A DNA stretch of 64,000 nt from an uncultured Gammaproteobacteria bacterium (GCA_964535655.1 CAZHTP010000001.1:98573-162572); one strand, 5' to 3'. Shown: positions 4,705 to 31,975, counted from the first letter of the stretch. Notes: generated by a model from the sequence alone, not told the origin. Translations and numbers: made by a program.

Positions 4705-5020
4705 TTTGATTAGTCCGACGCGTACGGCAGTTCCCTTGCGCTTGGCTATGTAGCCAATTGTTCCCCTTGGGGGGGATTGTATTCGCAAAGAAAAGTGGAG
4801 AGATGGGGCCAAAAATTAGCCTCATTTTTCCACTTTTCTTAGGAATAGCTTTACAAATGAAATTTTTATATATTGCTCTCTATGTTAAAGAACAAATTCG
4901 GCGACAAGTGTCGCTAAGTCTTATCAACCGTAAACTTCTAAAATGAAGTGAGGTCGATTTGACCGAGTTATTATACTATAGGATAGTTGTTTTTGTCAAC
5001 ACTATGGGATTTACTATTAG

Positions 5021-5323: not shown

Positions 5324-5435
5324 AATATTTATAATTCTTACAATATTACTAATATATATTAGTGAGAAACAAAATGTAAAGACTCACAAAATGTTATAGC
5401 ATTGTTTATTTTTAGTGTATAGTAACTTTTTTGTC

Positions 5436-5465
5436 TTGACAAGAGTTTAGCAGTCGATTTATACT
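5436..5465 (+). promoter_or_regulatory. Putative promoter of the hrcA-grpE-dnaK-dnaJ operon (TTGACA-N18-TATACT).
   Basis: TTGACA lies at 5436-5441 and TATACT at 5460-5465. The -10 overlaps the CIRCE-like element. Confidence 0.45.
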
Positions 5466-5473
5466 ATTGCTAG
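5447..5473 (+). promoter_or_regulatory. CIRCE-like HrcA operator (TTAGCAGTC-N9-TATTGCTAG).
   Basis: The left arm matches the CIRCE consensus TTAGCACTC at 8/9 positions and the right arm matches GAGTGCTAA at 6/9. Spacing is exactly 9 nt, and the element lies just upstream of hrcA. Confidence 0.5.
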
Positions 5474-5512
5474 ATTTTGAGTTGTATTTTTGATTAAATA
5501 TTGGAGAAACCT

Positions 5513-14036: not shown

Positions 14037-14068
14037 AAGCCTGGATATTTTTATTCAGGCTTTTTTTG
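14037..14068 (+). terminator. Intrinsic terminator (AAGCCTG-loop-CAGGCTT followed by TTTTTTT).
   Basis: A 7-bp stem lies at 14037-14043 / 14056-14062, followed by a T-run. Confidence 0.7.
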
Positions 14069-14146: not shown

Positions 14147-15310
14147 ATGCGCATTTGTATCGACATCTCTCAGACTGTCTATGAAGGTAGCGGAAGTGGT
14201 CGCTATGTTGTGGAGTTGGTTAAAGAGCTTTTAGCTCAAGATCAGACAAACGAGTACGTCCTTTTTGGAAGCGCGATGCGTCGACGATCTCAGCTTGTTT
14301 CTTTTGTTGCATTGCTTAAAGAACAATTTCCCAAAAGTCATATTACGCCGAAACTATTTTATTTCCCGCCAAAATTTTTTGAAATAGTATGGAATCGTTT
14401 ACATATTCTTCCGCTTGAGTTTTTTACTGGGCGAGTTGATGTATACCATTCTTCAGATTGGGTGGAAGCTTTGAGTAAAGCAAAGCGTGTAACAACGGTT
14501 CATGATTTAATTCCCTTTTTGTATCCGGTATTTGTTCATCCGCGGATTCGAGAGGCGCATATACTGCGGTGGAAACGAATTCTTGCTGAGGAAGATTGTG
14601 TTATTGTCGATGCAGAAATTACTAAGAAAGATATTATTTCGCGATTTTCTTTTCCAGCAGAAAAAATCGCCGTAATACCCTTGGCTTGTGATGCCCGTTT
14701 TTTCGAGATAGGTGAAAAGCGAATTCAGGGTTTGTTGAAAACTGACGCTCAATTGATAGAAGTACTTACCAGCTATAACTTAAATTTTGATTCGTATATT
14801 TTGTGTGTTGGTACCCTAGAACCACGAAAAAATATTCAGCGATTAATTCAGGCGTATTCACAACTTGATGTGAATTTTCGAGAAAAATTTCCGCTTGTTG
14901 TCGTTGGTAAAAAGGGATGGAGTTCTGATTTTGACTCTCGCGATAACGTAAGCTTTACCGGGTATGTTGCCGATACTGACTTACCGTATCTGTATGGTGG
15001 CGCAAAATGTTTTGTGATGCCAAGTTATTATGAAGGGTTTGGGCTTCCTGTCCTTGAGGCGATGGCCAGTGGAGCTCCGGTCATTTGTTCAAATATTTCA
15101 TCACTTCCAGAAATTGGTGGGGAAGAGGTCCATTATATTGAAGATCCTGAAAGTATTGAATCGATCAGACTTATTTTATCTCATGTATTGGTAAGCCCTA
15201 TTGAAGAACTATCATTAGTAGCAAAAAGTGCTTATACTCGATCTAAGACCTTTTCTTGGCAGAAAACAGCTGAGAGAACGCGTGAGATTTATAATAATTT
15301 AGTTAATTAA
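14147..15310 (+). CDS. Family GT4 glycosyltransferase (GT-B fold).
   Basis: The C-terminal E-x7-E region is present ([27 protein letters not shown]). Confidence 0.85.
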
Positions 15311-15323
15311 ACGGATATTATAT

Positions 15324-16454
15324 ATGAAAATCGGAATTGATGGTAATGAAGCGAATATAGCCGATAGAGTAGGTAGTGGTATGTATGCATACCAAGTTTT
15401 GAAGCATCTTTATGAGCTTGATACCTGGAATGAATATACGATCTATCTTAAACATGCTCCTATACGAGACATGCCCAATGAACGTAAAAACTGGAAATAC
15501 GTGGTATTGGGCCCAGAAAAATTGTGGACTCAATTTGCACTTCCTTTAAGGTTATTTATTGACGGGCGTAAGCTTGATGTATTTTTTTCTCCAGGACATT
15601 ATGCTCCTCGTTTTTGTCCTTGTAAGACAGTTATCTCTGTTCTTGATACTGCATATCTGCGTTTCCCTGAGTACTTTAAGAAAAGTGATTTAATGCAACT
15701 AAAGTCTTGGTCGAAATATAGCATAAAGAAAGCTGCTCATGTTTTAACTATTTCAGAATCATCAAAACAAGATATTGTTAAATTTTATGGTACAGATCCA
15801 AACAAGGTTACTGTTACTTATCTTGGCTTTGACACTGAGACATTTAAACCTGTTGAGAACGAAGAAAAAATTAAAAAAATCCTTGATAAATATGGATTTA
15901 AGCGGCCGTATATATTGTATTTAGGGACACTACAACCGCGAAAAAACATCGTCCGATTAATTCAAGCTTTTAAGGATCTTATTACTCAGGAAAGTTACAC
16001 TCAGCTTGGCTTAAAGTTAGTAATCGTTGGGAAAAAAGGGTGGTTATATCAGGAGATTTTTGCGGAAGTAAAGAAATTGCAGTTAGAAGATGTTGTCGTG
16101 TTTACCGGGTATATTACTGATGATGAAAAACCGGCAATTCTTTCGGGAGCGCTACTATATACGCTCCCTTCGTTATATGAAGGATTTGGAATTCCTGTTT
16201 TGGAAGCGATGGCGTGTGGAACACCTGTTGTTGTTTCACGAATTTCATCCCTGCCTGAAGTAGTAGGTGAATATGGGGTTCTTGTTGATCCGTATAATGT
16301 AAAGAGTATTAGTGGTGGACTAAAATTGTTGGTAAAAGATGTTGATTTACGTGAACAATTGAAAAAAAATGGATTGCAGTGGGTTAAACAATTTGATTGG
16401 ATGCACACCGCTCGTACAACTCTTGCGGTATTAGAATCTTATAGAAAAGAGTAA
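15324..16454 (+). CDS. Family GT4 glycosyltransferase.
   Basis: The GT4 signature YTLPSLYEGFGIPVLEAMACGTPVVVS is present. Confidence 0.85.
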   Translation: MKIGIDGNEANIADRVGSGMYAYQVLKHLYELDTWNEYTIYLKHAPIRDMPNERKNWKYVVLGPEKLWTQFALPLRLFIDGRKLDVFFSPGHYAPRFCPCKTVISVLDTAYLRFPEYFKKSDLMQLKSWSKYSIKKAAHVLTISESSKQDIVKFYGTDPNKVTVTYLGFDTETFKPVENEEKIKKILDKYGFKRPYILYLGTLQPRKNIVRLIQAFKDLITQESYTQLGLKLVIVGKKGWLYQEIFAEVKKLQLEDVVVFTGYITDDEKPAILSGALLYTLPSLYEGFGIPVLEAMACGTPVVVSRISSLPEVVGEYGVLVDPYNVKSISGGLKLLVKDVDLREQLKKNGLQWVKQFDWMHTARTTLAVLESYRKE

Positions 16455-16464
16455 GTGAGGTACT

Positions 16465-17061
16465 ATGTTTACTGACAAAGATGGCAATCAATTATCTACT
16501 GATGTTGCTTTGAAGAAAATCATTCGCCGTTTTTATTCCTACGGGGAAGACTTTTCTCTCATGCTTTTGACGCTTATTGGTTATGTTCCTTCTCATTTTG
16601 TGCGTAAATTCTTTTATAGACTGGCAGGAATCGCGATTGGTCAAAAAAGCTTTATCCATATGGGAGCCCGTTTCTACGATACGACCCGTATCAGTATTGG
16701 AGATGGAACTATAATTGGGTATCGCTGTTTCTTAGATGGCCGAGATACGCTAACGATTGGAAATCATGTGGATATTGCAAGCGAGGTAATGATTTATAAT
16801 TCAGAGCATGATCACCATGCCTCAGACTTCCATGCAATCAATGCACCTGTTACTATAGAAGACTATGTGTTTATTGGGCCCCGTTCAATTATCTTACCTG
16901 GCGTTCGCATAGGTAGAGGGGTGATTGTAGCGGCAGGAGCGGTTGTAACAAAGGATGTACCGGCATTGTCGATCGTTGGTGGTGTACCAGCTAAACAGAT
17001 TGGGACACGAAATGTATCTGAGTTAGCATATAAATTAGGGCGTCCGAGGTTATTTCAATAA
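16465..17061 (+). CDS. Hexapeptide-repeat (LbH) sugar O-acetyltransferase.
   Basis: Repeated [LIV]G-x4 hexapeptides are present ([51 protein letters not shown]). Confidence 0.8.
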
Positions 17062-17062
17062 T

Positions 17063-18019
17063 ATGTTTGATGTATCGATACTAATCGTTAATTTTAATAC
17101 GCGTGAACTTACAATGAAGCTCCTTGAGAGTGTCTTTAAGTATACGCGTGGAGTTACCTATGAAGTTATTGTTATTGATAATGCTTCTGAAGATAAAAGT
17201 GTTGCAGAAATTAAGCGAAAATACCGTAATAAAGTTACCGTTATTAAAAATAAAGAGAACGTTGGATTTGGGGCTGCTAATAATCAAGGGATGGCGATTG
17301 CTCAAGGACGATATTTCTGTTTATTGAATTCAGACACCTTACTTATTGGAAATGTATTTGAGAAAATGATCGAGTGGTTCGATCAGAATACCTTTGTTCC
17401 TATTAAAAGCTCCCGTAAAATTAATCCCGAGGAATTTAATTTATCATCTCTTCCGCATGGCACCGTTAAGCGGTATCCGATTGGATTGATTGGTTGCAAA
17501 TTGCTTAATTCTGATCGTACCGAACAATATAGTATTAAGCGATTCCCGACACTCGCAACAATGTTTGGTAATTTATTTTTATCCCGGCTTATTCGTCCAA
17601 CTATGCCTGATAAGATTACCGAGGTAGATTATGTGATGGGGGCCTTTATGCTTTTAAAGCGTGAGGTGTATGAACGAGTAGGTGGGTTTGATGAGCGCAT
17701 TTTTATGTATGTAGAAGAGACTGATTGGTGCTATCGAATACGAAAACATGGCTTTAGTGTGGTATACTGGCCTGATGCGGCGATAATTCATTATGGTGGT
17801 AGTAGTGCTATTCGTGGCCGTCGGGATCAAGTGTTAAATGCCTTTAAAGGATATCGTTATTTTTATAAAAAACATTATAGCAAAGCGATGTATTCTTGGC
17901 TTATGGCACAATTGAGATTAAAGTCCTATGTATCGTATGTGTTTGGGCGATTAACGGGAAATAAATATCTGGTCAACACCTACCGTGAAGCGTTGAAAGA
18001 TTTACATGATGGAAAGTAA
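17063..18019 (+). CDS. Family GT2 glycosyltransferase (GT-A fold).
   Basis: SILIVNFNTRELT..VIVIDNASEDKS..LLNSDT matches the DXD-containing GT2 N-terminal domain. Confidence 0.85.
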   Translation: MFDVSILIVNFNTRELTMKLLESVFKYTRGVTYEVIVIDNASEDKSVAEIKRKYRNKVTVIKNKENVGFGAANNQGMAIAQGRYFCLLNSDTLLIGNVFEKMIEWFDQNTFVPIKSSRKINPEEFNLSSLPHGTVKRYPIGLIGCKLLNSDRTEQYSIKRFPTLATMFGNLFLSRLIRPTMPDKITEVDYVMGAFMLLKREVYERVGGFDERIFMYVEETDWCYRIRKHGFSVVYWPDAAIIHYGGSSAIRGRRDQVLNAFKGYRYFYKKHYSKAMYSWLMAQLRLKSYVSYVFGRLTGNKYLVNTYREALKDLHDGK

Positions 18020-19607
18020 AATAACGTCGAACTATAAACGAGTTCTTGAGTGGATTGTTCTTGGATTACTGGTTTTTATCCCTCTTTATCCTAAATTACC
18101 TTTATTTGATGTTGCTTTTACCTGGACGTATATCAGGCTTGAAGATGTTTTTGTTGCGATTTCGTATGTGGCACTTTTTATAGCACTTCTGACAAGGAAA
18201 ACCTCTGTTCGTAACTTTTTATTAAAACCAATTGTTTTATTCTGGATAATTGGTCTACTTTCTACCGTTGTAGCTTTACTAACTCTTGGTAGACAAGATA
18301 ATTGGGCTATTTTTAAACCTCATTTAATTGTATTGAATTATCTTCGTCGTTTTGAATATCTTGGTGTGTTGTTTCTTGCGGTTGCTGCTTTTTCAGATAG
18401 AAAAGGAGTAAAAAGAGCAGCGATTGCGTTACTTGTTGGTATGGTGGGAGTGATACTGTATGGATTTGGTCAAAAATACGCTGGTTTTTGTAGCTATCTT
18501 ACTATGAATGAGGAGTTTGCGAAAGGAACGTGCATTCCGCTTCAGCCAGGAACTCGTGTTTCGGCAACTTTTGGAGGCCATTATGATTTAGCTGGATATC
18601 TGGTTTTTGTCTTACCAATTGTTATTAGCATGGTTTTTGTAGTTAAATCGACATTCTGGAAACTCTTTTTAAGCACAGTAACCCTGTTTGGATTTTTCTT
18701 GCTTCTTTTGACTTCATCTCGAATTTCTTTTCCTGCTGTTATCGCCGCTTTAGGCATAGTACTCGCAATTAATGTCAAGAATAAGAAAAAATTATTTATA
18801 GGTTTCTGCGTGATTGCTGTTTTAACCTTGATTTTTGGAAGAACAACTATTGTTGATCGCCTGGGTAAAACGATTAGAGTTAAGCAAGTGACGGTTGATA
18901 TGTCGACTGGCAGAATATTAGAGCAGCCGACTACACACAAAGACTGGGCAGGACTTCCCGAAAGTGATCGGGCAATTATTTTGCCGTTTCTGAAAGGTGA
19001 AGCTACCCCGTCTGCTTTTATAGTTTCTAAGCATGAGAAGGGAAGCCAAGATGAAATTCCTGTTTCAACTGAATCTGGCGTAAAGCGGAATACTGTTGAA
19101 GTTCCTCAAGCAGGGACAATTGAGCAAATCGGGTCTGATAAAAAAGAGATTATTGAAGAAGTGCGGGAAGTAAGAGGCAGATACGAACTAAAATACGCGT
19201 TAGTGTTGGATATCTCTTTTACCACTCGCTTTGATGGAGAATGGCCTCATGCAATGACTGCATTTTTATCTCATCCTATACTCGGGCAAGGGTATTCAAC
19301 GGTTACTGCCGCTGTTGATAGCAGTTATATTCGGGCATTAGCAGAAGTAGGCCTTCTGGGATTTGTAAGTTTCTTTGCTATTTTATTGATCTTTCTCAAG
19401 CGTTCGTTTGATTATGTTTTGAGATCGAAGGATCTGTTTTATAGAATGTTTGTTACTGGAGTTGCCTCTGGTGTTATTGGCCTTCTCATAAATGGATTAC
19501 TTATCGATATTTTTGAGGCATCAAAAGTTGCCTTTATGTTGTGGTTGTGTATCGGAGTCTCTGTTTGGATAATGGAGAGAGGTGATTCTCACGCTGACTC
19601 TTTATGA
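18006..19607 (+). CDS. Polytopic membrane protein of the Wzy_C / O-antigen ligase (WaaL/PglL-like) family with a large extracytoplasmic loop.
   Basis: At least ten predicted TM helices are present. The conserved C-terminal region HAMTAFLSHPILGQGYS...YIRALAEVGLLGF is typical of Wzy_C-domain ligases/polymerases. Confidence 0.65.
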   Translation: MMESKITSNYKRVLEWIVLGLLVFIPLYPKLPLFDVAFTWTYIRLEDVFVAISYVALFIALLTRKTSVRNFLLKPIVLFWIIGLLSTVVALLTLGRQDNWAIFKPHLIVLNYLRRFEYLGVLFLAVAAFSDRKGVKRAAIALLVGMVGVILYGFGQKYAGFCSYLTMNEEFAKGTCIPLQPGTRVSATFGGHYDLAGYLVFVLPIVISMVFVVKSTFWKLFLSTVTLFGFFLLLLTSSRISFPAVIAALGIVLAINVKNKKKLFIGFCVIAVLTLIFGRTTIVDRLGKTIRVKQVTVDMSTGRILEQPTTHKDWAGLPESDRAIILPFLKGEATPSAFIVSKHEKGSQDEIPVSTESGVKRNTVEVPQAGTIEQIGSDKKEIIEEVREVRGRYELKYALVLDISFTTRFDGEWPHAMTAFLSHPILGQGYSTVTAAVDSSYIRALAEVGLLGFVSFFAILLIFLKRSFDYVLRSKDLFYRMFVTGVASGVIGLLINGLLIDIFEASKVAFMLWLCIGVSVWIMERGDSHADSL

Positions 19608-21034
19608 AAAAATACTTGCTTGCTTTAATTATTGGATTAATTCCGCTCGGCATTTTTCTTTTTGGTTCCACTTTAACCAATTATTTTGTTTCAGATGATT
19701 TTATCTGGTTACTGCATGCCAAGCGTGATACATTCTATGATTTCTCACGCTATCTTATTGATTCACAAGGATTTTTTTATCGTCCTTTTACTAAAATGTA
19801 TTTTTTCTGGATGTGGAGATGGTTTAGTGTCGATCCGTATCCATATCATGTTGCTAGTGTATTTTTACACGGAATTAATGCCATTTTAGTATACGTACTT
19901 TCATTTTCTATGCTGCGAATATTCTTCATGAGGACTAAAGATGATAAGAAAGCAATATTCTCCTTTGTGACCGCAATTCTTTTTTTTATTCATCCGATTC
20001 ATCAGGAAAATATACTTTGGATCAGTGCGGTGACTGAGTTGTTCCCTGCGTTGTTCTTGTTGCTTGCGCTTATTATTTTTACCATTACTCGCGATAAGGG
20101 ATTTACCTTATTTTCTGGATTTCTATTCTTTCTTTGTTTCTCACTCGGACTTATGAGTCATGAGTATGTTGTGATTTTTCCCCTCCTGGTTTTTATTACT
20201 CACTATTTTAGTGTTTTACAAAAGAGAGAGCTTGTTTCTTTAAAGCAGCTTATATGTATATTTAGCATGCATAAAAAATTGTACGTGGGGTTATTGATGA
20301 TAGATCTGGTATATCTTGCTTTGCGTGCTCAAGCTAATTCTCATTGGAGTGGTGGGGATTACAGTTATAACCTGGTTAAACTGCCGTTTAATTTTATCGG
20401 GAATTTGACTGGCTATATTGGGCTTGATATTGTTGGAGTGCCGTTTATTTATTTCTACCAGGGTGTTCGGGATATCATGAAGAACAATATGGTGCTTGCC
20501 GGTATTCTGCTTATAGTTTTCTGTTCTGGACTTGTGTATCTTTATTGGTTTGCAATGCGAAATAGAGATTATCAATCCGAGCTGCAGCTAGAGCGGTTTG
20601 TTTTATATATTTTCCTGTTTTTTGTAACTGCCTTACTGCCTTTTTTAGGGTTAGGTGGAATTGCAGAACGATATGTGTATTTGCCTTCTTTTGCAGTACT
20701 ACTTTTCTTGAGTTTATTTTTGTACTGGATTATTCGTTATTTTGAAGTCCCAACCACTAGTTATCTAAAATGGTATTGGTGTATTTTTATTCTCATTGCC
20801 GGGATATATATCTACGCAGCCAAATCTGATCAGTCGGATTGGAAAATAGCAAGTGATTTTGTTTATGGAAGACTTAGTGAATTTAGAACTTATTGTGGAA
20901 AATTTGAATCTAATCAATTGATTAGTAGAGTTTCTCCTCCTAATCGCGTGGGGCGTGCCTGGGTTTTTCAGGTTGGGTATGAACAAGGCGCTAATGTTCT
21001 TTGTGATAAAAATATTAAGATATTATTAAACTAA
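19604..21034 (+). CDS. Polytopic GT-C-fold membrane glycosyltransferase-like protein (PMT/ArnT/YfhO-like).
   Basis: Many TM helices are present, together with an N-terminal extracytoplasmic loop bearing acidic residues (VSDDFIWL). Family assignment is tentative. Confidence 0.5.
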   Translation: MKKYLLALIIGLIPLGIFLFGSTLTNYFVSDDFIWLLHAKRDTFYDFSRYLIDSQGFFYRPFTKMYFFWMWRWFSVDPYPYHVASVFLHGINAILVYVLSFSMLRIFFMRTKDDKKAIFSFVTAILFFIHPIHQENILWISAVTELFPALFLLLALIIFTITRDKGFTLFSGFLFFLCFSLGLMSHEYVVIFPLLVFITHYFSVLQKRELVSLKQLICIFSMHKKLYVGLLMIDLVYLALRAQANSHWSGGDYSYNLVKLPFNFIGNLTGYIGLDIVGVPFIYFYQGVRDIMKNNMVLAGILLIVFCSGLVYLYWFAMRNRDYQSELQLERFVLYIFLFFVTALLPFLGLGGIAERYVYLPSFAVLLFLSLFLYWIIRYFEVPTTSYLKWYWCIFILIAGIYIYAAKSDQSDWKIASDFVYGRLSEFRTYCGKFESNQLISRVSPPNRVGRAWVFQVGYEQGANVLCDKNIKILLN

Positions 21035-21049
21035 TGCTATACTTTTGCT

Positions 21050-22606
21050 ATGAACAAATATGTCCTCGGTGGAATTCTTTTACTTAGCCTTGTTGCCAGG
21101 TTGTATCATTTTAATAATCCAATGGCTGATTTACACTCTTGGCGTCAGTCGGATACGGCATCGGTTGCTCGAAACTTAGTGCGAAGCAATTTTGATGTAT
21201 TACATCCACAGATTGAAAGCGCTGTCAGTATTGATGGGATAGGTCGCGATAACACCACGCGCTATCATTTTGCTGAGTTTCCGATATATCAGGCAGCTGT
21301 TGCTGCAGTAAGTTATCCAGTTGCACAAATCCATCATGGCACTTTAACTCAAAATGTTGTTTTAGCTGGTCGAATTGTTTCTACTTTCTCTTCGCTTATT
21401 GCGATTATTGGGCTTTACTTACTCTGTACTCGATATTATTCAGATAAAGTGGCGTTACTTGCTGCGTTTGTATATGGACTGCTACCGTACAATATTTTTT
21501 GGTCGCGCGCAGTTTTACCGGATAGCATGATGGTGATGTTCTGTCTTTTTATGCTCTATTGGTTCGATGTATGGATTCGGGGTGAAGATGAGCATCATCA
21601 CCGATTGTTAACACTAAAAAGCTGGTCGTTTTGGCTCGCTTTGATTTGTTTTGCCCTGGCGCTACTCCTTAAGGCTTTTGTGCCATTTCTTTTGTTGCCA
21701 GTGGCCTATATTGTATGGAAGCGATTTGGGCTTGCTGCGGTAAAACAGCCAGCTTTATGGATCTTTGCAATACTGGCTGTAATGCCTTTTGTTGGATGGA
21801 GAATATGGATGCAAAATTGGCCATTTTCTATACCAGCTAGTGGATGGCTGTTTGATGGAAATAAAGTTCGGCTCCGCCCTGCTTGGTGGCATTGGATAGT
21901 ACAAGTTCGACTTGACCAATTCATGTTTAATGCAACGGGTCTGTTTTTGATAGGTTTAGGATTGTTCTTCTATAAAGAGATTACCGAAGTGCATTTTCAT
22001 ATCATCAGTAAGAAACGTAAGGACGCTGAAAAATACGTATGGTATTTACCGCTTTGTTTATTATCCTGTTTTATTTATTTAATAGTTTTCGCTACAGGAA
22101 ATACGCAGCATGAATACTACCAACTTCCCATAACTCCATTTGGTTCCATACTTGTTGCCGTGGGTTTTTGGTATTTGTGGAGAAAAATGGGGTCTTATTT
22201 GGAAATGGTAATGCGTAGATTGCTGGCGCTGGCTTTTATTGCAATTACTTTGATGCTTGGATGGTATTCAGTAAGAGATTGGTACATTATTGGCAATCCT
22301 GCTTTAGTAACCGTTGGTGAACGGGCAGACCAAATTCTTCCTAAGAATGCGCAAGTTATTGCCGATTATGGAGGAGATACAACGTTTCTCTATTATGTTA
22401 ATCGGAAGGGATGGAGTGTCCGGGATAAACAGTTGCAGGAAATCATTGATCGTGGTGCTACCGTATATGTTTCGATGCATCGGGACGATTATATAAATAA
22501 ATTGGCAAGGCTCTACAAAGTTATTGATGAAACCCCAGAGTATGTCATGATAGATTTATTGCATCGCAGGGGAGACTGGACAGGAATAAAAGATTACGAG
22601 CTCTAA
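21050..22606 (+). CDS. GT-C-fold membrane glycosyltransferase (ArnT/PMT family, GT39/GT83-like).
   Basis: The N-terminal LYHFNNP...HSWRQSDTASVARN loop motif typical of ArnT/PMT enzymes is present, with 10 or more TM helices. Confidence 0.65.
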   Translation: MNKYVLGGILLLSLVARLYHFNNPMADLHSWRQSDTASVARNLVRSNFDVLHPQIESAVSIDGIGRDNTTRYHFAEFPIYQAAVAAVSYPVAQIHHGTLTQNVVLAGRIVSTFSSLIAIIGLYLLCTRYYSDKVALLAAFVYGLLPYNIFWSRAVLPDSMMVMFCLFMLYWFDVWIRGEDEHHHRLLTLKSWSFWLALICFALALLLKAFVPFLLLPVAYIVWKRFGLAAVKQPALWIFAILAVMPFVGWRIWMQNWPFSIPASGWLFDGNKVRLRPAWWHWIVQVRLDQFMFNATGLFLIGLGLFFYKEITEVHFHIISKKRKDAEKYVWYLPLCLLSCFIYLIVFATGNTQHEYYQLPITPFGSILVAVGFWYLWRKMGSYLEMVMRRLLALAFIAITLMLGWYSVRDWYIIGNPALVTVGERADQILPKNAQVIADYGGDTTFLYYVNRKGWSVRDKQLQEIIDRGATVYVSMHRDDYINKLARLYKVIDETPEYVMIDLLHRRGDWTGIKDYEL

Positions 22607-22609
22607 AAT

Positions 22610-23863
22610 ATGAAGATATTACTTATTTTTCCTCTCTGTCCGTTGCCTCTTAACTCAGGTGGGCAAATTCGTGTATGGAATATTGCACGGGAACTTCGTA
22701 ATTTTCATATCATCGATCTTGTGTGTTTTATCCGTGATGATGCTGAAAAAAAATATGAAGCCGAATTGAAAACAGTATTCAATTCCGTCACATTTATTAA
22801 ACGGAAAAAGTTGTTTGATCGTTCGATGTTGGTTCAGGGTGGATTATCTGCAATAACTTTTTTTCAATCTAACTTAGAGTTATTATTCTCCGCACTATTT
22901 TCAGGCAGGCCTCTTCTTGGGCATTTATATGATTCTGAGGAAATGCGTGAATACATTCTGAAGGTCGATATCGAAACGAAATACGATCTATTTTATGCTG
23001 AAACTTTTTACGGTATTGCTTCATTAAAGATTATTTTATCTCAGATTAAAACTAAGATCCTCTTACTTGATCAAAATATTGAGTCAGTTGCCTACGAACG
23101 CCAATCGAAACAACAAAAAAATCTTATTGTTCGTATGCTCATGTATTTGGATGTACTAAAGATTAGACGAGAGGAAGAATTCTTTTGGAATTCAGTGGAA
23201 ATGGTTGGCGCATTATCTGATGTAGATAGGAGGTACATTGAGCAGAGAACAAGTAAAAAAGCATTGCTTGTTGAAAATGGTGTTGATAGTGCGTGGTTTT
23301 CTCAAAAAGTTACCGAAAGAGTTACTTCAGAGATCCTATTTGTGGGTACATTTTCCTATTTTCAAAATGTCGATTCCTTAAAATGGTTTCTTGATTCAAT
23401 ATGGCCCCGCATAGTTGTTAAGACTAACATGTCTTTATCGTTGCATATTGTTGGTCGTGGAGCGGATGCTGCCTTGAAAGAATATGTATCGGGATTGGGA
23501 TATACGATCGATGAGTCGGTTGATGATATTCGTTATGCGTTTCAGAGAGCAACGTTGCTTGCGGGACCGATACGGGCTGGAAGTGGAACTAAATATAAAG
23601 TGCTTGAAGCGATGGCCTCAGGGTTACCCGTTCTTACTACGCCTGTTGGTGCCGAAGGGCTTGGAATTACTCCTGGTACAGAAATGCTGGTCGCACAAGA
23701 AGAAGAGCAGTTCGCTGAACTTGCTATACAGCTTTTACAAAATGAAAAACTGCGGGAAACAATTGGCATGGCGGGGTATTTGTTTGTAAAAGAAGCCTAT
23801 GATTGGAAGACGATTGTAAAAAAGTTTGTTATGCAGCTTAATGGTAGTACTTCGTGTCAATAA
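22610..23863 (+). CDS. Family GT4 glycosyltransferase.
   Basis: [23 protein letters not shown] matches the GT4 C-terminal nucleotide-sugar binding motif. Confidence 0.8.
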   Translation: MKILLIFPLCPLPLNSGGQIRVWNIARELRNFHIIDLVCFIRDDAEKKYEAELKTVFNSVTFIKRKKLFDRSMLVQGGLSAITFFQSNLELLFSALFSGRPLLGHLYDSEEMREYILKVDIETKYDLFYAETFYGIASLKIILSQIKTKILLLDQNIESVAYERQSKQQKNLIVRMLMYLDVLKIRREEEFFWNSVEMVGALSDVDRRYIEQRTSKKALLVENGVDSAWFSQKVTERVTSEILFVGTFSYFQNVDSLKWFLDSIWPRIVVKTNMSLSLHIVGRGADAALKEYVSGLGYTIDESVDDIRYAFQRATLLAGPIRAGSGTKYKVLEAMASGLPVLTTPVGAEGLGITPGTEMLVAQEEEQFAELAIQLLQNEKLRETIGMAGYLFVKEAYDWKTIVKKFVMQLNGSTSCQ

Positions 23864-23896
23864 GCGGGTGTTTTAGTATAATGCTCCTAGCGATTT

Positions 23897-24823
23897 ATGA
23901 CAGATATCTCAATTATTATCTTAAACTACAATACTCGTGATTTGCTTGCGCAAACTCTTAATTCGATCAGTCGCGAGCTTTCGGCTGATATTGGTATTGA
24001 GATTATTGTAAGCGATAATGGGTCGACAGACGGATCAGTAGAGATGATCCGAACTAACTTTCCTTGGGTTGGACTCCTTGAGAATAACGCAAACCTGGGT
24101 TTCTCGGCAGGCAATAATCGGGGAGTGCCCATTTCTAAGGGACGATATGTGTTATTCCTTAATTCAGATGTTCAAGTTGTTGGTGATGCGATTCACTATG
24201 TATATACACAAATGGAGGCAGATGCCTCAATAGGAATTGGGACATGTTACGTTGAACTTTCGTCAGGAGGAATTGATCCTGCTTGTCATCGTGGATTTCC
24301 CACTCCATGGCGCGCTTTCTGTTATTATAGCTCATTAGAGAGATTTGCTTCAAAGCTTCCTACTTCGGGGACTGGTTTATTACTGAGAAAATGGCTAGGT
24401 GGATATCATTTACTTGAAAAGCCGCTTGACTGCGCTCATGAGATAGATTCATGTACCGGCGCTTTTTTGCTTGTTCGACGTGATGTAGGGGAGAGTATTA
24501 AGTGGTGGGATGAGGATTTCTTTATGTATGGTGAGGATTTAGATTTTTGTTATAAGGTGAAGGAATTAGGTAAAAAAGTGATGTTTTTCCCACAAGTAAA
24601 AATACTTCACTTTAAACACCAAAGTGGTCTTAAAAAGAACGATTCAGTAGTGAAGGTGGATGTTCGTGCGATTAAACGAAAAACGACGATTGCATTTTAT
24701 GATGCGATGAAGATTTTTTATACTAAGCATTACACCACTAAATATCCAGCCTGGTTAACAGGGTTAGTTTTACTGTTTATTTCCATTAAGAAACAACGAG
24801 CATTACAAAAAATACATTCGTGA
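23897..24823 (+). CDS. Family GT2 glycosyltransferase.
   Basis: ISIIILNYNTRDLL..IIVSDNGSTDGS..FLNSDV matches the GT2 signature. Confidence 0.85.
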   Translation: MTDISIIILNYNTRDLLAQTLNSISRELSADIGIEIIVSDNGSTDGSVEMIRTNFPWVGLLENNANLGFSAGNNRGVPISKGRYVLFLNSDVQVVGDAIHYVYTQMEADASIGIGTCYVELSSGGIDPACHRGFPTPWRAFCYYSSLERFASKLPTSGTGLLLRKWLGGYHLLEKPLDCAHEIDSCTGAFLLVRRDVGESIKWWDEDFFMYGEDLDFCYKVKELGKKVMFFPQVKILHFKHQSGLKKNDSVVKVDVRAIKRKTTIAFYDAMKIFYTKHYTTKYPAWLTGLVLLFISIKKQRALQKIHS

Positions 24824-24832
24824 AAGGACTGT

Positions 24833-25546
24833 ATGCATCCAATTTTTAAGCGAGTTTTGGTTAAGATGTCTGGGGAAGCATTTTCTGGAGAACAAGATTA
24901 TGGGGTCGATCCAAAATCTCTTGAATATTTTGCTCATGAGTTAAAAAGCATAGCTGACTTAGGGGTTCAAGTTGCTGTAGTAGTGGGTGGAGGGAATATT
25001 TGGCGTGGCGAAGGTAAGGGCAAAGAGCATATGGACCAGGCACAGAGTCATTTTATGGGAATGCTTGCTACAGTTATTAATACGTTGGCGCTGCAGGATG
25101 CGCTTGAACAACTTGAAGTTCCAACGCGAGCAATGACTGCATTGCAAATAGAATCGGTAGCCGAGCCATATATCAGGCGGAAAGCAATTCGTCATTTGGA
25201 AAAGGGTAGAGTAGTGGTGCTTGGCGGCGGAACAGGAAACCCATTTTTTACTACCGACAGTGCGGCAGCGCTTAGAGCTGCTGAGATTCATGCCGAAGTT
25301 CTGTTGATGTCAAAAAATGGAGTTGATGGCGTGTATACAGCAGACCCAAAAATTGATCCGGCTGCAACAAAATTGGATACCCTTGAGTATATGCAAGCAA
25401 TTAACTCTAACTTACGAGTAATGGATACTACTGCTTTGGCATTTGCCAAGGAACGAATGTTACCAATGGTGGTTTTTAATGGTAAAGAGCCAGGCCTTCT
25501 TAAGAAAATTATTATTGGTGAAAAAATTGGGAGTAGAATTAGTTAA
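24833..25546 (+). CDS. pyrH: UMP kinase PyrH.
   Basis: KRVLVKMSGEAF...VAVVVGGGNIWRG...GNPFFTTDSAAALRA match the conserved PyrH motifs. Confidence 0.9.
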   Translation: MHPIFKRVLVKMSGEAFSGEQDYGVDPKSLEYFAHELKSIADLGVQVAVVVGGGNIWRGEGKGKEHMDQAQSHFMGMLATVINTLALQDALEQLEVPTRAMTALQIESVAEPYIRRKAIRHLEKGRVVVLGGGTGNPFFTTDSAAALRAAEIHAEVLLMSKNGVDGVYTADPKIDPAATKLDTLEYMQAINSNLRVMDTTALAFAKERMLPMVVFNGKEPGLLKKIIIGEKIGSRIS

Positions 25547-25550
25547 TTGA

Positions 25551-26675
25551 TTGGCTATGAAAATTGGAATTGACGCGCGACTTTATATGGAATCGGGTAA
25601 TGGTAGATATTTAAGAAATTTGCTTATACAGTTACGTCTCAACGATCATAAAAATTCGTACGTTGTATTTTGTCTTAAGAAGGATTTTGAAACAATTCGG
25701 AATGTACTCTCGGGTGACAACTGGAAAATTGTGGTTGCTGATTATCGGTGGTATTCTTTTAGCGAACAGTTACTATTCCCTTTTATTTTGTATCGTGAGT
25801 GGGTAGACTTATTGCATTTTCCGCACTTTAACATGCCAGTTTTATATGTAAAACCGTTTGTGGTTACTATTCACGATCTTACTCATTTTGCCTTCGCAAT
25901 GAAACGCGCTTCCACCCATTCTTTTGTTACTTACTATATTAAGCATCAGGCGTACAGTTTTGTTTTCTGGTACGCAATAACATGGAGTAAGAAGATCTTC
26001 ACGGTATCTAGCTATGTGAAGGACGATATTTTGCGTAAGTTTAATTGTGATAAAAATAAGATTATTGTAACGTATGAGTCTGCAGAGAAACCGTTACTTG
26101 TTGCTCAGGATGAAATGAAAGAAGTAGTAAAACGATTAAAAATAAAAGAGCCTTTTTTCCTGTATGTGGGAAATGCGCATCCACATAAGAACATTGAATT
26201 TCTCTTACAATCATTTTCTGAACTACAGAAGTCGGTTTCTCCCGTGCATCTTGTCCTGGCTGGAAAAGAAAATTACTTCTGGACTAAATTACTCGAGTGG
26301 GGAAAAGAGTATAAAATGATATCAAATGTTTCGTATTTGGGTTTTGTACCTGATACTGATTTAGCTGTTCTATATAGTAAAGCAATTGGGTTTGTTTTTC
26401 CTTCGCTTTCAGAAGGATTTGGGTTGCCGGTACTTGAAGCAATGTCGTATGGATGCCCGGTAATTTGTTCTGAATTGACCAGTATTCCTGAGGTTGCGGG
26501 AGATGCGGCGGTTTACATTGATCCAAAAAATATTGATTCTTTAGTTCGCGCAATGCACATGCTGTATTCTTCTTCAGATATTCGTCTTGAGTGTAAACAG
26601 TTAGGTTTTTCTCAAGTTAAAAAATTCAGTTGGGAAGAGATGGGAAAATCTACATTATCCAATTACTTAGGTTGA
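25551..26675 (+). CDS. Family GT4 glycosyltransferase.
   Basis: [27 protein letters not shown] matches the GT4 signature. Confidence 0.85.
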   Translation: MAMKIGIDARLYMESGNGRYLRNLLIQLRLNDHKNSYVVFCLKKDFETIRNVLSGDNWKIVVADYRWYSFSEQLLFPFILYREWVDLLHFPHFNMPVLYVKPFVVTIHDLTHFAFAMKRASTHSFVTYYIKHQAYSFVFWYAITWSKKIFTVSSYVKDDILRKFNCDKNKIIVTYESAEKPLLVAQDEMKEVVKRLKIKEPFFLYVGNAHPHKNIEFLLQSFSELQKSVSPVHLVLAGKENYFWTKLLEWGKEYKMISNVSYLGFVPDTDLAVLYSKAIGFVFPSLSEGFGLPVLEAMSYGCPVICSELTSIPEVAGDAAVYIDPKNIDSLVRAMHMLYSSSDIRLECKQLGFSQVKKFSWEEMGKSTLSNYLG

Positions 26676-27370
26676 TTTGGATCTGAACCATTAACATACT
26701 GATCGTAGGGTGTGGTATATCCTTGTCCCTGTTGTTGTCCACCGTTTGATTGTGCCCATCCGGATGTATCTGCTGCTGGTGTGTTGCTGAAGTTGTCTGG
26801 CTGGTATGGAGGGTATGTTGGATTACTTGGTGGTGCTGGCATGGTGTAGTTTGTGCTTTGTTTCTGTCGGCTTAATATAACCCAAACAATTCCAATTATG
26901 AGCAAGATTGTTCCAACCACTGCGCCGATTATTAGTCCGATATTAGAAGCTCCTTTTGTTGCTGGTTTTGGTGTTGGAGATAAAGTGGGGGTTGTTTGAC
27001 CAGGAATATCTATGTCAAATGTTGGTGCAGGTGTTTCAGTTTCTTGCGCTACGGTTGTTGCGGTTACGGTGGGAAACGGTGTGAAAGTTGCTTGTGTTGT
27101 AACTGTTGGAAATGGTGTTGCGGTGGCAATTGGCGTACCGGTTCCATTATCATCTTCGAGTGGCTCGTCGGGTGGCTCTGTAGCGTTAGGATTGGTGGTA
27201 CCAATCACTTCGTCGGAGGGATCAACCGCTCCTGCGAATGCGTTGTCCTTTTTTTGTAGGTTTGCCGCTATTCGAGGAGATTGGCTAATAATTGTACATA
27301 CAAGAAAAATCCCTATTATTGTTAGGGCAATTAAGAGGGTTTTATAGGATTGATCTTCACGTCTGCTCAT
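26663..27370 (-). CDS. Bitopic membrane protein with a roughly 130-aa Thr/Pro-rich mucin-like extracytoplasmic segment and a Gln/Gly/Tyr/Pro-rich cytoplasmic tail.
   Basis: The first TM is LLIALTIIGIFLVCTIIS. It is followed by the TATPFPTVTTQATFTPFPTVTATTV...TPTLSPTPKP region. The second TM is IGLIIGAVVGTILLIIGIVWVIL. The tail reads PPSNPTYPPYQP...GGQQQGQGYTTPY. The gene is convergent with the last GT4 gene. Confidence 0.65.
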   Translation of the reverse strand: MSRREDQSYKTLLIALTIIGIFLVCTIISQSPRIAANLQKKDNAFAGAVDPSDEVIGTTNPNATEPPDEPLEDDNGTGTPIATATPFPTVTTQATFTPFPTVTATTVAQETETPAPTFDIDIPGQTTPTLSPTPKPATKGASNIGLIIGAVVGTILLIIGIVWVILSRQKQSTNYTMPAPPSNPTYPPYQPDNFSNTPAADTSGWAQSNGGQQQGQGYTTPYDQYVNGSDPNQPK

Positions 27371-29050: not shown

Positions 29051-30115
29051 ATGGATGACGAGAAATTTTTTATTAGTACATACAAAGAAGCAGGCTTGTT
29101 GGTAATTGAAGAGGTAAAAAAATACACTTCATTTTTTGCACCAACAATAAAAGAAAGTGACGCAATGCGCAAAGAGATTACGCGGTTTATTTTAGCTGGT
29201 GGAAAACGATTCCGTCCTTCGCTTTCTTATTTAGTTGCGAAATTTTATGGTGTCGATATGATGTTTCCGCATCTTGCGCTGGAAACGTTTCATAAGTATT
29301 TATTAACGCATGATGACATTATGGATCGTGATGATATACGCTACAGTGCGCCAACGGTGCATAAAAAATTGGAGGAGATTATTCATCCCTATACAAACGA
29401 CGCTGGAGAAAGACGACATTTTGGGAATGGGTTAGCAATTGTGGCTGGTGACATGATGGAAGCGGCTACCAATAAGATTATTTTGCAATCAGATTTAGAT
29501 GCTGATGTAAAAGTTCAATTGGTAGGGTTAGTGGCACAAGCGGCTGAAGAAGCGGCGTATGGATGGTATGACCAATTAATTATGGATTATATCCAACTTG
29601 ATTCTAAAGAGCTTTCTTATGAGCGAATTGAAACTTCTATAATTTGGGTGACTGGAAAATATACTATGAAATTTCCGTTACATTTTGGAATTGCTGTTGC
29701 CGGTGTTGGTGTACCAGAAGGGATTGATCACCTGGCTGATGATCTTGGTGTCTTATTTCAAACAGGTGATGATTTGATTGGTTTATTCGGCGATCCTGAA
29801 GCAACAGGGAAATCTAATTTTGGCGATATTGTACAAGGCAAAAAAACATTGCCGATGTGGTTTACCTTTGAACTCGCTAATGCGGGTGATCGGGAAGTGT
29901 TAAAACAACTCGTTGGTAAACAGAATTTAAGCCATGATGAAGCGGAAGTGGTGCGTGGAATTTGTAAAAATTCCGGTGCTTTTGATCGCGCTAAAGGGTT
30001 AATGCGCGAATATCGTGACGCCTGCCTTGGGCAGATTGATGGACTCGATATCCCAGCGGACATGAAAAAGTTTTTGCGCGGATTTGCGATATTTCTTGAG
30101 AAGCGGGATAGATAA
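29051..30115 (+). CDS. Polyprenyl (trans-isoprenyl) diphosphate synthase.
   Basis: The first Asp-rich motif LTHDDIMDRDD and the second FQTGDDLIG are present, with the overall FPP/GGPP synthase architecture. Confidence 0.85.
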   Translation: MDDEKFFISTYKEAGLLVIEEVKKYTSFFAPTIKESDAMRKEITRFILAGGKRFRPSLSYLVAKFYGVDMMFPHLALETFHKYLLTHDDIMDRDDIRYSAPTVHKKLEEIIHPYTNDAGERRHFGNGLAIVAGDMMEAATNKIILQSDLDADVKVQLVGLVAQAAEEAAYGWYDQLIMDYIQLDSKELSYERIETSIIWVTGKYTMKFPLHFGIAVAGVGVPEGIDHLADDLGVLFQTGDDLIGLFGDPEATGKSNFGDIVQGKKTLPMWFTFELANAGDREVLKQLVGKQNLSHDEAEVVRGICKNSGAFDRAKGLMREYRDACLGQIDGLDIPADMKKFLRGFAIFLEKRDR

Positions 30116-30161
30116 TTCATTTCCTCTTTCCAAATCATTGCAGCAATGCTACTTTAATCTT

Positions 30162-31970: not shown

Positions 31971-31975
31971 TTATT

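Follow-up and report, generated by a model that had tools for sequence, protein, structure and literature searches.

The operon at positions 14147-26675 of the window (the whole 64-kb stretch of DNA analysed) probably serves to build a glycan for the cell surface, carried on polyprenyl diphosphate, with a polysaccharide as a likelier acceptor than a protein. The first-pass annotation had called the locus a general protein O-glycosylation system, and this call is partly supported at most. A glycoconjugate locus with an enzyme of the WaaL/Wzy_C superfamily and two GT-C glycosyltransferases was indeed found; however, the catalytic His is replaced by Asp, the PglL_A family was unmatched, and the neighbouring Thr/Pro-rich protein is lineage-restricted.

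Organization of the operon

Twelve consecutive ORFs on the + strand span positions 14147-26675 (Table 1), and they either overlap or are separated by gaps of 1-33 nt. The upstream gene is separated from the first GT4 gene by 133 nt, within which a terminator-like hairpin is located. The tight spacing and the upstream terminator identify the region as an operon. It contains four GT4, two GT2, one hexapeptide acetyltransferase, three polytopic membrane enzymes and pyrH; all eleven glycan genes were given family assignments using Pfam and NCBIfam.

Table 1. Features of the operon and its flanks (positions counted from the first letter of the window).
Feature	Position	Strand	Evidence and remarks
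Terminator-like hairpin	14037..14062	+	11-bp stem, then T run; 3' of upstream dsbA-like gene; 5' boundary of operon
GT4 glycosyltransferase (a)	14147..15310	+	Glycos_transf_1 E 4.8e-31, Glyco_transf_4 E 1.9e-13; 36% identity to collinear L010 gene
GT4 glycosyltransferase (b)	15324..16454	+	Glycos_transf_1 E 1.3e-40; identity 88% L001/L002, 47% L010
Hexapeptide-repeat (WcaF-like) sugar O-acetyltransferase	16465..17061	+	Hexapep E 1.2e-15; L010 orthologue 57% identity
GT2 glycosyltransferase (a)	17063..18019	+	Glycos_transf_2 E 7e-22; L010 orthologue 39% identity
WaaL-fold, Wzy_C-superfamily membrane enzyme, CPR-specific clade	18006..19607	+	Predicted fold; Asp438 at catalytic-His position
GT-C fold glycosyltransferase, TMTC/DUF1736-like, without TPR	19604..21034	+	Predicted fold, hhalign profile comparison
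GT-C glycosyltransferase, PMT_2/PMT type	21050..22606	+	PMT_2 31.3 bits (cut-off 26.1), PMT 26.4 bits (cut-off 22.7)
GT4-type glycosyltransferase (c), stp1-like	22610..23863	+	Glyco_trans_1_4 E 1.8e-22
GT2 glycosyltransferase (b)	23897..24823	+	Glycos_transf_2 E 5.7e-20; collinear L010 gene 42% identity
UMP kinase PyrH, inside operon	24833..25546	+	TIGR02075 301.5 bits, cut-off 243.9
GT4 glycosyltransferase (d), last operon gene	25551..26675	+	Glycos_transf_1 E 3.4e-32; collinear L010 gene 37% identity
Membrane protein, Thr/Pro-rich ectodomain, Pro/Tyr/Gln-rich cytoplasmic tail	26663..27370	-	Translation, 235 aa; no Pfam family above threshold

The coordinates and strands given in the first-pass annotation were correct, as were its two GT2 genes, the hexapeptide acetyltransferase and the three polytopic membrane proteins. 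The gene content has to be revised, since five GT4 genes had been counted and only four were found. The ORF 24833-25546 was rejected as a fifth GT4, because it matched the PyrH model above the cut-off and encodes no glycosyltransferase; the total of GT2 and GT4 enzymes is thus six, not seven. The pyrH gene occupies the equivalent position in three related loci (L001, L002 and L006) and on the P0015 contig, and it is absent from the gene lists of the distant clusters L007-L010.

Some of the cytoplasmic-type enzymes could be compared with more specific families. The best NCBIfam match of the acetyltransferase was the WcaF family (89.6 bits, under the cut-off), and the GT4-type enzyme 22610-23863 aligned full-length to TIGR03087 (155 bits, also under the cut-off). 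The first GT2 (17063-18019) gave generic GT-A matches only against the PDB. Neither GT2 showed specific likeness to a polyprenyl-phosphate sugar synthase in the NCBIfam and PDB comparisons; the GT-C enzymes therefore have no evident donor source among the window genes, a point against the proposed pathway.

Homologous clusters in related genomes

Nine operon genes are collinear with the L010 cluster, sharing 31-57% identity, and the core order is also kept in L007/L008 and L009, although, going by its gene list, L009 lacks a GT2 separating the acetyltransferase from the fusion gene. The first-pass annotation supposed a reduced genome; a close relative sits on a 1.57-Mb contig. Homologues of the WaaL-like enzyme carry Patescibacteria names. 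Judging from gene order and identity, the cluster is conserved across Microgenomates-type CPR (Patescibacteria) genomes, including distant ones. The recurrence of collinear clusters in several other genomes shows that the genes are not grouped by accident.

The L007-L010 clusters include ManC, a Bac_transf priming transferase and DUF4012, the last of which lies at the cluster end; a Polysacc_synt gene (Wzx-type flippase) was present only in L010 among these four. DUF4012 also occurs in EPS loci (PMC6744442). The L010 Wzx, ManC, Bac_transf and DUF4012 were used as queries on the 64-kb window and found no counterparts. Neither a priming transferase nor a flippase was found in the window, and the same holds for a chain-length regulator (no Wzz/PCP domain), an LCP ligase and ManC; the cis complement of the pathway is therefore incomplete, which counts against the proposed pathway. 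Partner genes for the Wzy_C-type protein, which had been named as a mark of ordinary wall polysaccharide synthesis, are thus present in distant relatives (the flippase in one) but not in the window. Each cluster has one Wzy_C-type gene alongside six to nine glycosyltransferases, which would also fit the transfer of a single large oligosaccharide to protein.

The WaaL-fold membrane enzyme

The predicted structure of 18006-19607 has a multi-helix WaaL-like membrane fold. WaaL was the closest solved structure in a PDB comparison that included no Wzy or PglL structure. An additional stretch of ~110 aa (residues ~290-401) is inserted as a beta-rich ectodomain. The claimed Wzy_C signature is less secure than the fold: the match to Pfam Wzy_C (PF04932) scored 26.6 bits, under the gathering score of 31.7, and many homologues bear the precomputed PF04932 label. 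HMMER searches against the PDB detected no sequence similarity to WaaL. The polymerase, ligase and oligosaccharyltransferase roles of this enzyme cannot be distinguished by sequence or fold; its predicted WaaL/PglL-superfamily fold is consistent with protein O-glycosylation as well.

The active-site residues argue against a typical WaaL/PglL-type transferase, as which the protein had been annotated. A catalytic His is needed in WaaL, PglL (H349 in NmPglL) and PglS (H324A inactive) (PMC3643930; PMC12800693). The H[NSQ]X9GXX[GTY] motif of these enzymes corresponds to D438-S-X9-G449-X-X-G452 here, and Asp occupies the position of the His in 81/81 family members. D438 pairs with H338 of EcWaaL by motif and by hhalign, the latter with low probability. 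R239 aligns with EcWaaL R215 and is kept in 75/81 family sequences; R408, invariant in all 81, lies in an SxxxR motif that resembles EcWaaL S284-R288 by inspection only. These equivalences come from a low-probability hhalign alignment, motif matching and inspection, and not from a printed structural superposition. The two diphosphate-binding Arg residues of WaaL appear to be retained as R239 and R408, and Asp438 probably serves as a base replacing the catalytic His. Moreover, the PglL_A motif (PF15864), which is used as a PglL criterion (PMC3643930), gave no match to 18006-19607 in the Pfam scan (E <= 0.01).

The GT-C glycosyltransferases

Two GT-C proteins had been proposed and both were confirmed, 21050-22606 by its Pfam PMT/PMT_2 membership and 19604-21034 by predicted fold and profile comparison only. 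The model of 19604-21034 (476 aa) has the membrane fold of GT-C enzymes and terminates in a small alpha/beta domain; the first extracytoplasmic loop carries an acidic DD motif. Its transmembrane domain aligned to the profile of a TMTC-type family, whose members are labelled PF08409, PF13231 and TPR, over 382 columns (hhalign 99.95%, E 7e-38). The protein itself had no TPR, DUF1736 or other Pfam match. The PMT_2 protein 21050-22606 gave no PMT_4TMC match (Pfam), no PDB sequence match at E <= 1 and no NCBIfam match. Its gene is found directly 3' of the Wzy_C or fusion gene in L006, L007/L008, L009 and L010, and two genes downstream of it on the P0015 contig.

The ORFs 18006-19607 and 19604-21034 overlap by ATGA, through which they are predicted to be translationally coupled. 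Wzy_C-GT-C fusions are frequent in relatives: a GT-C domain is carried by 24 of the best 120 Wzy_C-family matches, and by 39/137 representatives at 50% identity. Given the fusion in many relatives and the coupling here, the WaaL-like and TMTC-like enzymes very likely catalyse successive reactions on a common substrate. No description of a WaaL-like enzyme partnered or fused with a TMTC-like GT-C was found in the literature searched. The nearest characterised families of the two GT-C enzymes (PMT and TMTC) include protein O-mannosyltransferases, which is compatible with a protein acceptor; the eukaryotic TMTC1-4 and POMTs are described in PMC11292533 as initiating protein O-mannosylation.

The Thr/Pro-rich neighbour

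The gene 26663-27370 is convergent with the last operon ORF, and their 3' ends overlap by 13 nt. The existence and the convergence of this Thr/Pro-rich neighbour had been described correctly; however, its ectodomain is not almost pure Thr/Pro/Ala and measures ~113 aa rather than ~130 aa (T 21%, P 16%, A 12%). A core of 63 aa reaches T 33% and P 19%, and enrichment that high occurs only there. Two hydrophobic segments (~aa 11-30 and 144-166) were recognised by sequence inspection, so for the protein to be bitopic, as had been stated, the first would have to be cleaved off as a signal.

Orthologues with 69% identity are present in L001/L002, and L006 has a positional analogue. Only five homologue clusters were found among 5.8 billion proteins, and no obvious counterpart was seen in the syntenic loci of more distant relatives (composition scan for L007; gene lists for L009 and L010). 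On this distribution the protein is restricted to a narrow lineage, which counts against the protein O-glycosylation reading. In the close relatives, the synteny around it extends to housekeeping genes, namely SUF, dsbA, pyrH and trxB, and its adjacency to the operon is therefore uninformative on function. The PA14 protein (54-1970) and the secreted protein 3772-4812(-) have Pro/Thr/Ser linkers too, as had been noted. Such Pro/Thr segments in the neighbour and the PA14 protein could be glycan acceptors; however, secreted bacterial proteins often have Pro/Thr linkers, both with and without glycosylation.

Proposed pathway and alternatives

The steps of the pathway are suggested by family membership. 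A priming phosphoglycosyltransferase, of the Bac_transf type in relatives and encoded outside the window, would start the chain on polyprenyl phosphate. The four GT4 and two GT2 enzymes would lengthen it at the cytoplasmic face, the WcaF-like enzyme would O-acetylate it, and a Wzx-type flippase (in cis in one relative and absent from this window) would export it. On the outer side, the diphosphate-linked glycan may then be the donor of the WaaL-fold enzyme, with R239/R408 contacting the diphosphate and Asp438 acting as base; the TMTC-like and PMT_2 GT-C enzymes may attach further sugars, for which polyprenyl monophosphates would be the donor carriers. Compared with en bloc transfer to protein, it is more likely that a surface or wall polysaccharide is polymerised or attached, with the GT-C enzymes adding side-chain decoration.

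Protein O-glycosylation would require 18006-19607 to be a PglL-like oligosaccharyltransferase, transferring the glycan en bloc to Ser/Thr of Pro/Thr-rich surface proteins including the neighbour, and the GT-C enzymes to be PMT-like protein O-mannosyltransferases. The superfamily fold, the GT-C families and the lone Wzy_C-type gene are compatible with this reading, but the invariant Asp, the unmatched PglL_A and the narrow distribution of the neighbour make it unlikely.

A two-step O-glycosylation of protein or wall, peculiar to CPR bacteria, is very improbable. The TMTC-like GT-C would prime Ser/Thr of Pro/Thr-rich surface proteins with a single hexose, onto which the coupled WaaL-like enzyme would move the complete polyprenyl-PP-linked oligosaccharide en bloc, with Asp438 in place of His as base. 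Such a scheme would account for how widespread the Wzy_C-GT-C fusion is, for the missing PglL/WaaL His and for the occurrence of just one Wzy_C-type gene in each cluster; if true, the transfer onto a priming sugar would parallel the ligation by WaaL onto a core sugar.

WaaL ligates glycans onto lipid A-core, and sugars are added outside the cell in actinobacterial lipomannan and in lipoteichoic acid glycosylation. A comparable lipoglycan or glycolipid pathway, in which the WaaL-like enzyme ligates the glycan to a membrane glycolipid anchor and the GT-C enzymes extend or decorate it outside, is very improbable here: WaaL is the closest solved structure and GT4 genes weakly match glycolipid-anchor enzymes (NCBIfam, all far under cut-off), but no glycolipid-anchor synthase exceeded the threshold, the WaaL catalytic His is missing, and no sign of a lipid acceptor was seen in the window or related loci.

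Comparison with known systems

The preferred polysaccharide pathway is comparable to the Wzx/Wzy-dependent surface-polysaccharide clusters (e.g. O-antigen, colanic acid), of which the teichuronic acid tua operon of Bacillus subtilis is a monoderm example; the NCBIfam TuaC/TuaG matches were weak. The operon shares with them a run of GT4/GT2 genes, a WcaF-like acetyltransferase and one Wzy_C-superfamily enzyme, and the CPR homologues add Bac_transf, a nucleotide-sugar enzyme and, in one of them, a Wzx-type flippase. In contrast to these clusters, two GT-C genes stand beside the Wzy_C-type gene, one of them fused to it in relatives; there is no recognisable Wzz/PCP or LCP ligase, DUF4012 being at the cluster end in relatives; and the window has no priming enzyme or flippase in cis, with pyrH inserted in the operon.

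WaaL (Cupriavidus metallidurans PDB 7TPG/7TPJ; E. coli WaaL) differs from 18006-19607 at the His338 position, in lacking the ectodomain insertion, and in sequence, where HMMER detected no similarity; neither the window nor the related loci showed any LPS genes. PglL/PglS/PilO, whose donor is a polyprenyl-PP-glycan, are members of the Wzy_C/WaaL superfamily as well, and their target proteins have flexible Ser/Thr-rich segments (PMC3643930). The operon enzyme departs from them in the Asp at the essential His and in PglL_A, and has no adjacent pilin-like target. The TMTC-type GT-Cs (DUF1736; eukaryotic TMTC1-4; bacterial TPR-containing homologues) have a homologous transmembrane domain and DD motif, whereas 19604-21034 is without the TPR domain and the Pfam DUF1736 match and is partnered or fused with a WaaL-like enzyme.

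The GT-Cs of polysaccharide loci such as GtrABC, CsbB/YfhO and GacI/GacL add outer-face side-chain sugars from polyprenyl-phosphate-sugar donors. The two GT-C enzymes likewise lie inside a polysaccharide-type locus; however, no GtrB/GacI-type synthase or GtrA-type flippase was recognised among the window genes. The features that set the operon apart are the WaaL-like family with an invariant Asp for the catalytic His, and its coupling or fusion to a TMTC-like GT-C.

Organization of the operon

The region 14147-26675 contains twelve consecutive + strand ORFs, which overlap or are separated by only 1-33 nt. Genes were assigned with Pfam and NCBIfam (see the table). A strong terminator-like hairpin lies 3' of the upstream dsbA-like gene, and the last ORF overlaps by 13 nt, at the 3' ends, with a convergent gene for a Thr/Pro-rich protein. 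The first-pass annotation had given a nearly correct gene inventory with seven GT2/GT4 enzymes; however, its fifth GT4 is the UMP kinase PyrH, and the total is therefore six. Promoter scanning returned no more matches than the shuffled expectation, and neither an Rfam RNA family nor a tRNA gene was found within the 64-kb window.

The pyrH gene lies between a GT2 gene and the last GT4 gene, with gaps of 9 and 4 nt. This position is kept in the closely related loci L001, L002 and L006 and on the P0015 contig (the neighbourhood of a homologous Wzy_C-type protein), but pyrH is absent from the distant clusters L007-L010. It might tie the supply of UDP/UTP to the use of nucleotide sugars, or its presence might be incidental. 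The two GT2 genes were also considered as GtrB/DPM1-type polyprenyl-phosphate sugar synthases serving the two GT-C enzymes, which was not supported; they gave generic GT-A N-terminal matches only, and the top NCBIfam models were of the rhamnosyltransferase, MftF and EpsD types.

Features of the operon and of other parts of the window
Feature	Position	Strand	Basis
PA14 protein, 638 aa	54-1970		four PA14 domains, E 2.8e-71
Predicted secreted protein, 346 aa	3772-4812	-	no Pfam match
Terminator-like hairpin	14037-14062		
GT4	14147-15310	+	Pfam/NCBIfam
GT4	15324-16454	+	Pfam/NCBIfam
WcaF-like hexapeptide acetyltransferase	16465-17061	+	Pfam/NCBIfam
GT2	17063-18019	+	Pfam/NCBIfam
Wzy_C-type (WaaL-like) polytopic protein, 533 aa	18006-19607	+	sub-threshold Wzy_C match, 26.6 bits (cut-off 31.7)
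Polytopic protein, 476 aa (TMTC-like GT-C)	19604-21034	+	no match in Pfam or NCBIfam
PMT_2/PMT GT-C protein	21050-22606	+	above threshold
GT4	22610-23863	+	Pfam/NCBIfam
GT2	23897-24823	+	Pfam/NCBIfam
UMP kinase PyrH	24833-25546	+	TIGR02075, 301.5 bits (cut-off 243.9)
GT4	25551-26675	+	Pfam/NCBIfam
Thr/Pro-rich protein, 235 aa	26663-27370	-	no Pfam family above threshold
Polyprenyl synthase, then two 2-oxoacid:ferredoxin oxidoreductase subunits	29051-32839		
DHH-family protein, 459 aa	37061-38440		DHH match spread across residues 20-220
AAA+/Lon-lid protein, 358 aa	41425-42501		
Lon protease, full-length	56863-59382		

The WaaL-like protein

The Wzy_C-type protein belongs to a large family, whose names are almost only those of Patescibacteria (Gottesman-, Levy- and Shapirobacteria, the Microgenomates group, and Saccharimonadales). 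The exact look-up of the 533-aa ORF gave no record; a 532-aa version starting at the second Met is on record. The AlphaFold2 model, built on 81 homologues (pLDDT 84, pTM 0.87), has a beta-rich ectodomain inserted at about residues 290-401. The PDB fold search with this model gave no PglL or Wzy structure among the matches, so ligase and polymerase are inseparable by fold alone; PDB sequence searches with the Wzy_C profile and with the insertion-deleted sequence yielded nothing useful.

The key residues are common to WaaL and PglL: R215, R288 and H338 of E. coli WaaL correspond to R224, R298 and H349 of PglL (PMC3643930). The corresponding His mutant of PglS, H324A, is inactive, and the Arg residues were proposed to coordinate the diphosphate (PMC12800693). 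E. coli K-12 WaaL has the motif H338-N-X9-G-X-X-G; in the protein studied here, the equivalent helix opens with D438-S-X9-G-X-X-G. The hhalign alignments with E. coli WaaL paired D438 with H338, S439 with N339, G449 with G349, and R239 with R215; these equivalences are provisional because the local alignments are of low probability. By inspection, S404-x-x-x-R408 also resembles S284-x-x-x-R288 of WaaL. Both D438 and R408 are invariant (81 of 81 homologues), and R239 is found in 75 of the 81. No family member in two independent samples had His at the motif position (Asp:His, 43 to 0 and 29 to 0). Judged by sequence, the family is a distinct WaaL-fold clade in which the catalytic His is replaced by Asp; the probable diphosphate-binding Arg residues appear to be kept.

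The GT-C proteins and their coupling with the WaaL-like protein

The 476-aa protein (model pLDDT 90.9) matched bacterial TPR-containing DUF1736 (TMTC)/PMT_2-labelled proteins in profile comparison (99.95% probability, E 7e-38, 382 columns), and itself has no TPR domain. All sequences that extend over its first outer loop keep the DD pair located there. A profile search of 1.84 billion representatives revealed 109,797 relatives at E <= 0.001, and the protein is a TPR-less member of this very large GT-C family. The earlier description of two GT-C mannosyltransferase-like proteins in the operon thus holds at the level of fold and family. The exact look-up found the 476-aa gene only on a 4.9-kb Logan contig, and PDB sequence searches with the GT-C profile and the PMT_2 protein gave nothing useful.

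The genes of the WaaL-like protein and the TMTC-like GT-C are joined by an ATGA overlap in the window. According to the called-gene coordinates, this overlap is also found in the related loci L004 and L006; about 60 nt separate both genes on the P0015 contig. In other CPR genomes, the two are a single protein of 900-1070 aa. Among the homologous Wzy_C-type proteins, P0029 matches the 476-aa protein at E 3e-15 and P0046 at E 5e-19. The GT-C profile also matches the C-terminal half of the protein in L007 and in L009 (E 1e-43 to 1e-52). The GT-C domain is present in 24 of the 120 best Wzy_C-family matches. Conversely, the Wzy_C-family profile matches 39 of the 137 GT-C-nearest representatives (50% identity clusters), with E down to 1e-176. 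Since the two are fused in CPR relatives and overlap by ATGA in the window, the comparative evidence strongly suggests that they act together. Literature searches on O-antigen ligases, Wzy or glycosylation in CPR/Patescibacteria gave no account of the cluster or of the Wzy_C-GT-C fusion.

Conservation of the cluster

The loci L001, L002, L004 and L006 and the P0015 contig have 33-90% protein identity to the window. The whole arrangement is kept in all of them, including pyrH and the - strand gene before trxB. The flanking SUF, dsbA and trxB genes are kept as well, and the conservation among close relatives is therefore general synteny. The homologous clusters of the distant CPR genomes (L007/L008, L009 and L010) are located in a different genomic context. 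The core order in L007/L008 and L010 is GT4, acetyltransferase, GT2, Wzy_C (with or without GT-C), PMT_2 and GT4; in L009, no GT2 is listed between the acetyltransferase and the fusion gene. The PMT_2 gene is directly 3' of the Wzy_C or fusion gene in L006, L007/L008, L009 and L010, and two genes downstream on the P0015 contig. Nine window genes are collinear with their L010 counterparts (31-57% identity).

Downstream in the distant clusters are more GT4/GT2 genes, followed by ManC (NTP_transferase), a Bac_transf priming transferase, DUF4012 and recO; L010 also has, upstream, a Polysacc_synt (Wzx-type) flippase and another GT-C. An enrichment of the DUF4012 family in CPR has been noted, and a capsule/EPS locus of Bifidobacterium has the family too (PMC6744442). 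The Wzx, ManC, Bac_transf and DUF4012 genes of L010 have no counterpart anywhere in the window, and no priming phosphoglycosyltransferase, Wzx, Wzz, ABC exporter or LCP gene was found within its 64 kb.

Several local differences were also observed. An extra gene for a 182-208-aa hydrolase, Nudix-like by eye, is located in the acetyltransferase/GT2 interval of L001 (8372-8998) and L002 (8504-9052). Its interpretation as an ancestral cluster member lost from the window was rejected; there is no homologue or remnant in the window, and none in L007, L009 and L010. Two lineage-specific insertions occur inside the L001 cluster: a 370-aa charged, repeat-containing protein on the opposite strand (7316-8428, -), and a 498-aa secreted protein (15828-17324, +) with an SPTPTPSPTQ linker and a C-terminal region that looks metallophosphatase-type by eye. 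In the fused-type clusters of L007 (6807-7346) and L009 (7481-8059), a separate 179-192-aa ORF with only an N-terminal Glyco_transf_4 match lies 5' of a full GT4 gene; this ORF is perhaps a copy of the first GT4 that was split or has degenerated.

The L001 contig (CAYOFQ010000001.1) carries the title 'uncultured Gammaproteobacteria bacterium' and, at 1.57 Mb, is large by the standard of CPR genomes. The proteins of the region are nearest to Patescibacteria/Microgenomates names, and the label looks wrong. From the names of its homologues, the window organism is probably a CPR lineage allied to Microgenomates, which is at odds with the L001 title.

The Thr/Pro-rich neighbour and other genes

The Thr/Pro-rich protein has a short basic N-terminus, a hydrophobic segment, an ectodomain, a second hydrophobic segment, and a Pro/Tyr/Gln-rich cytoplasmic tail. 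The ectodomain of about 113 aa contains 21% T, 16% P and 12% A, and its 63-aa core contains 33% T and 19% P. It is a real gene, with 69% identity in L001 and L002 and a positional analogue of the same layout in L006. Only five homologue clusters were found among 5.8 billion proteins, and the exact ORF is not on record. No obvious counterpart adjoins the distant clusters, by composition scan in L007 and by gene lists in L009 and L010; in the L007 scan, no ORF exceeded 28% S+T+P per 60-aa window, except for the fusion protein's own loop. The adjacency of the gene to the operon was rejected as a functional link, because the housekeeping genes of the neighbourhood are syntenic in the same genomes. 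As a glycosylation substrate, the protein is a candidate by composition alone.

The Pro/Thr linkers noted earlier in two further proteins are indeed present; such linkers are common in secreted bacterial proteins. The PA14 protein has Pro/Thr/Ser/Ala linkers between its domains, such as PTPTPTASPTPSVAPSPSGSPS; its ORF begins at the window edge, and the N-terminus may be truncated. The 346-aa predicted secreted protein has Ala/Pro/Thr-rich stretches, and its gene lies where the GC content of the window is highest (0.454 at 4001-6000, versus about 0.40 overall).

The remaining window is housekeeping: the dnaK operon, SUF/IscS, trxB, polyprenyl synthase, PFOR, nusA-infB, pnp, RNase J, ftsK, nrd and lon. 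The AAA+/Lon-lid protein stands alone, without a protease or substrate-binding domain, and the full-length Lon is encoded 14 kb downstream. The DHH-family protein has a Pro-rich low-complexity stretch near residue 260 (VTPPAPAVGQMPPGMYGQYPPGMPYPP). In L006 (19499-21425), unlike in the window, two lycopene-cyclase-domain genes and one gene of the amine-oxidase/phytoene-desaturase type come after the polyprenyl synthase gene 3' of trxB; these carotenoid genes are unexpected in a CPR-like genome.

Proposed pathway and comparison with known systems

The operon is tightly organised and conserved among CPR genomes. Besides an acetyltransferase, it encodes six glycosyltransferases of the cytoplasmic type; to these it adds a WaaL-fold enzyme and two GT-Cs, one of which is physically coupled to the WaaL-like enzyme. 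In relatives, a priming transferase and a GDP-mannose-type nucleotidyltransferase belong to the same cluster, and one relative has a Wzx-type flippase there as well. The pathway would build a glycan on polyprenyl diphosphate, acetylated and probably containing mannose, and flip it outward. On the outer face, the WaaL-like enzyme (likely base, Asp438) would process the glycan together with both GT-C enzymes, which would use polyprenyl-phosphate sugars. On balance, the product would be a polysaccharide of the surface or wall; the WaaL-like enzyme would polymerise or attach it, and the GT-Cs would decorate it.

En bloc protein O-glycosylation, which had been proposed in the first-pass annotation, seems rather unlikely. 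That proposal is partly supported: the families to which the GT-Cs are related, and the presence of only one Wzy_C-type gene in each cluster, leave room for a protein acceptor. Against a PglL-type enzyme are the loss of the ligase/OTase His and the Bac_transf, Wzx and DUF4012 partners in the homologous clusters. Two other schemes are improbable: a glycolipid or lipoglycan pathway, and a two-step hybrid, with priming of the acceptor by a GT-C and ligation onto the added sugar by the WaaL-like enzyme.

The CPR/Patescibacteria are ultra-small and mostly uncultivated; many are believed to live on host cells, and little is known of their surface chemistry. Its conservation and collinearity across the Microgenomates-type genomes examined make the cluster a prime candidate for producing a major surface glycan of these cells. 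The invariant Asp in place of the catalytic His and the recurrent fusion to a TMTC-like GT-C provide experimental handles; they also bear on ligase/polymerase switching of the WaaL/Wzy/SEDS fold and on the roles of bacterial TMTC-like enzymes. A protein acceptor, if shown, would make the system a new type of bacterial O-glycosylation.

The operon is the same kind of system as Wzx/Wzy_C-type carrier-lipid glycan assembly. Its three unusual conserved features are the putative His-to-Asp WaaL-fold clade with an added ectodomain, the fusion or coupling of the WaaL-like enzyme to a TPR-less TMTC-like GT-C, and the embedded pyrH.
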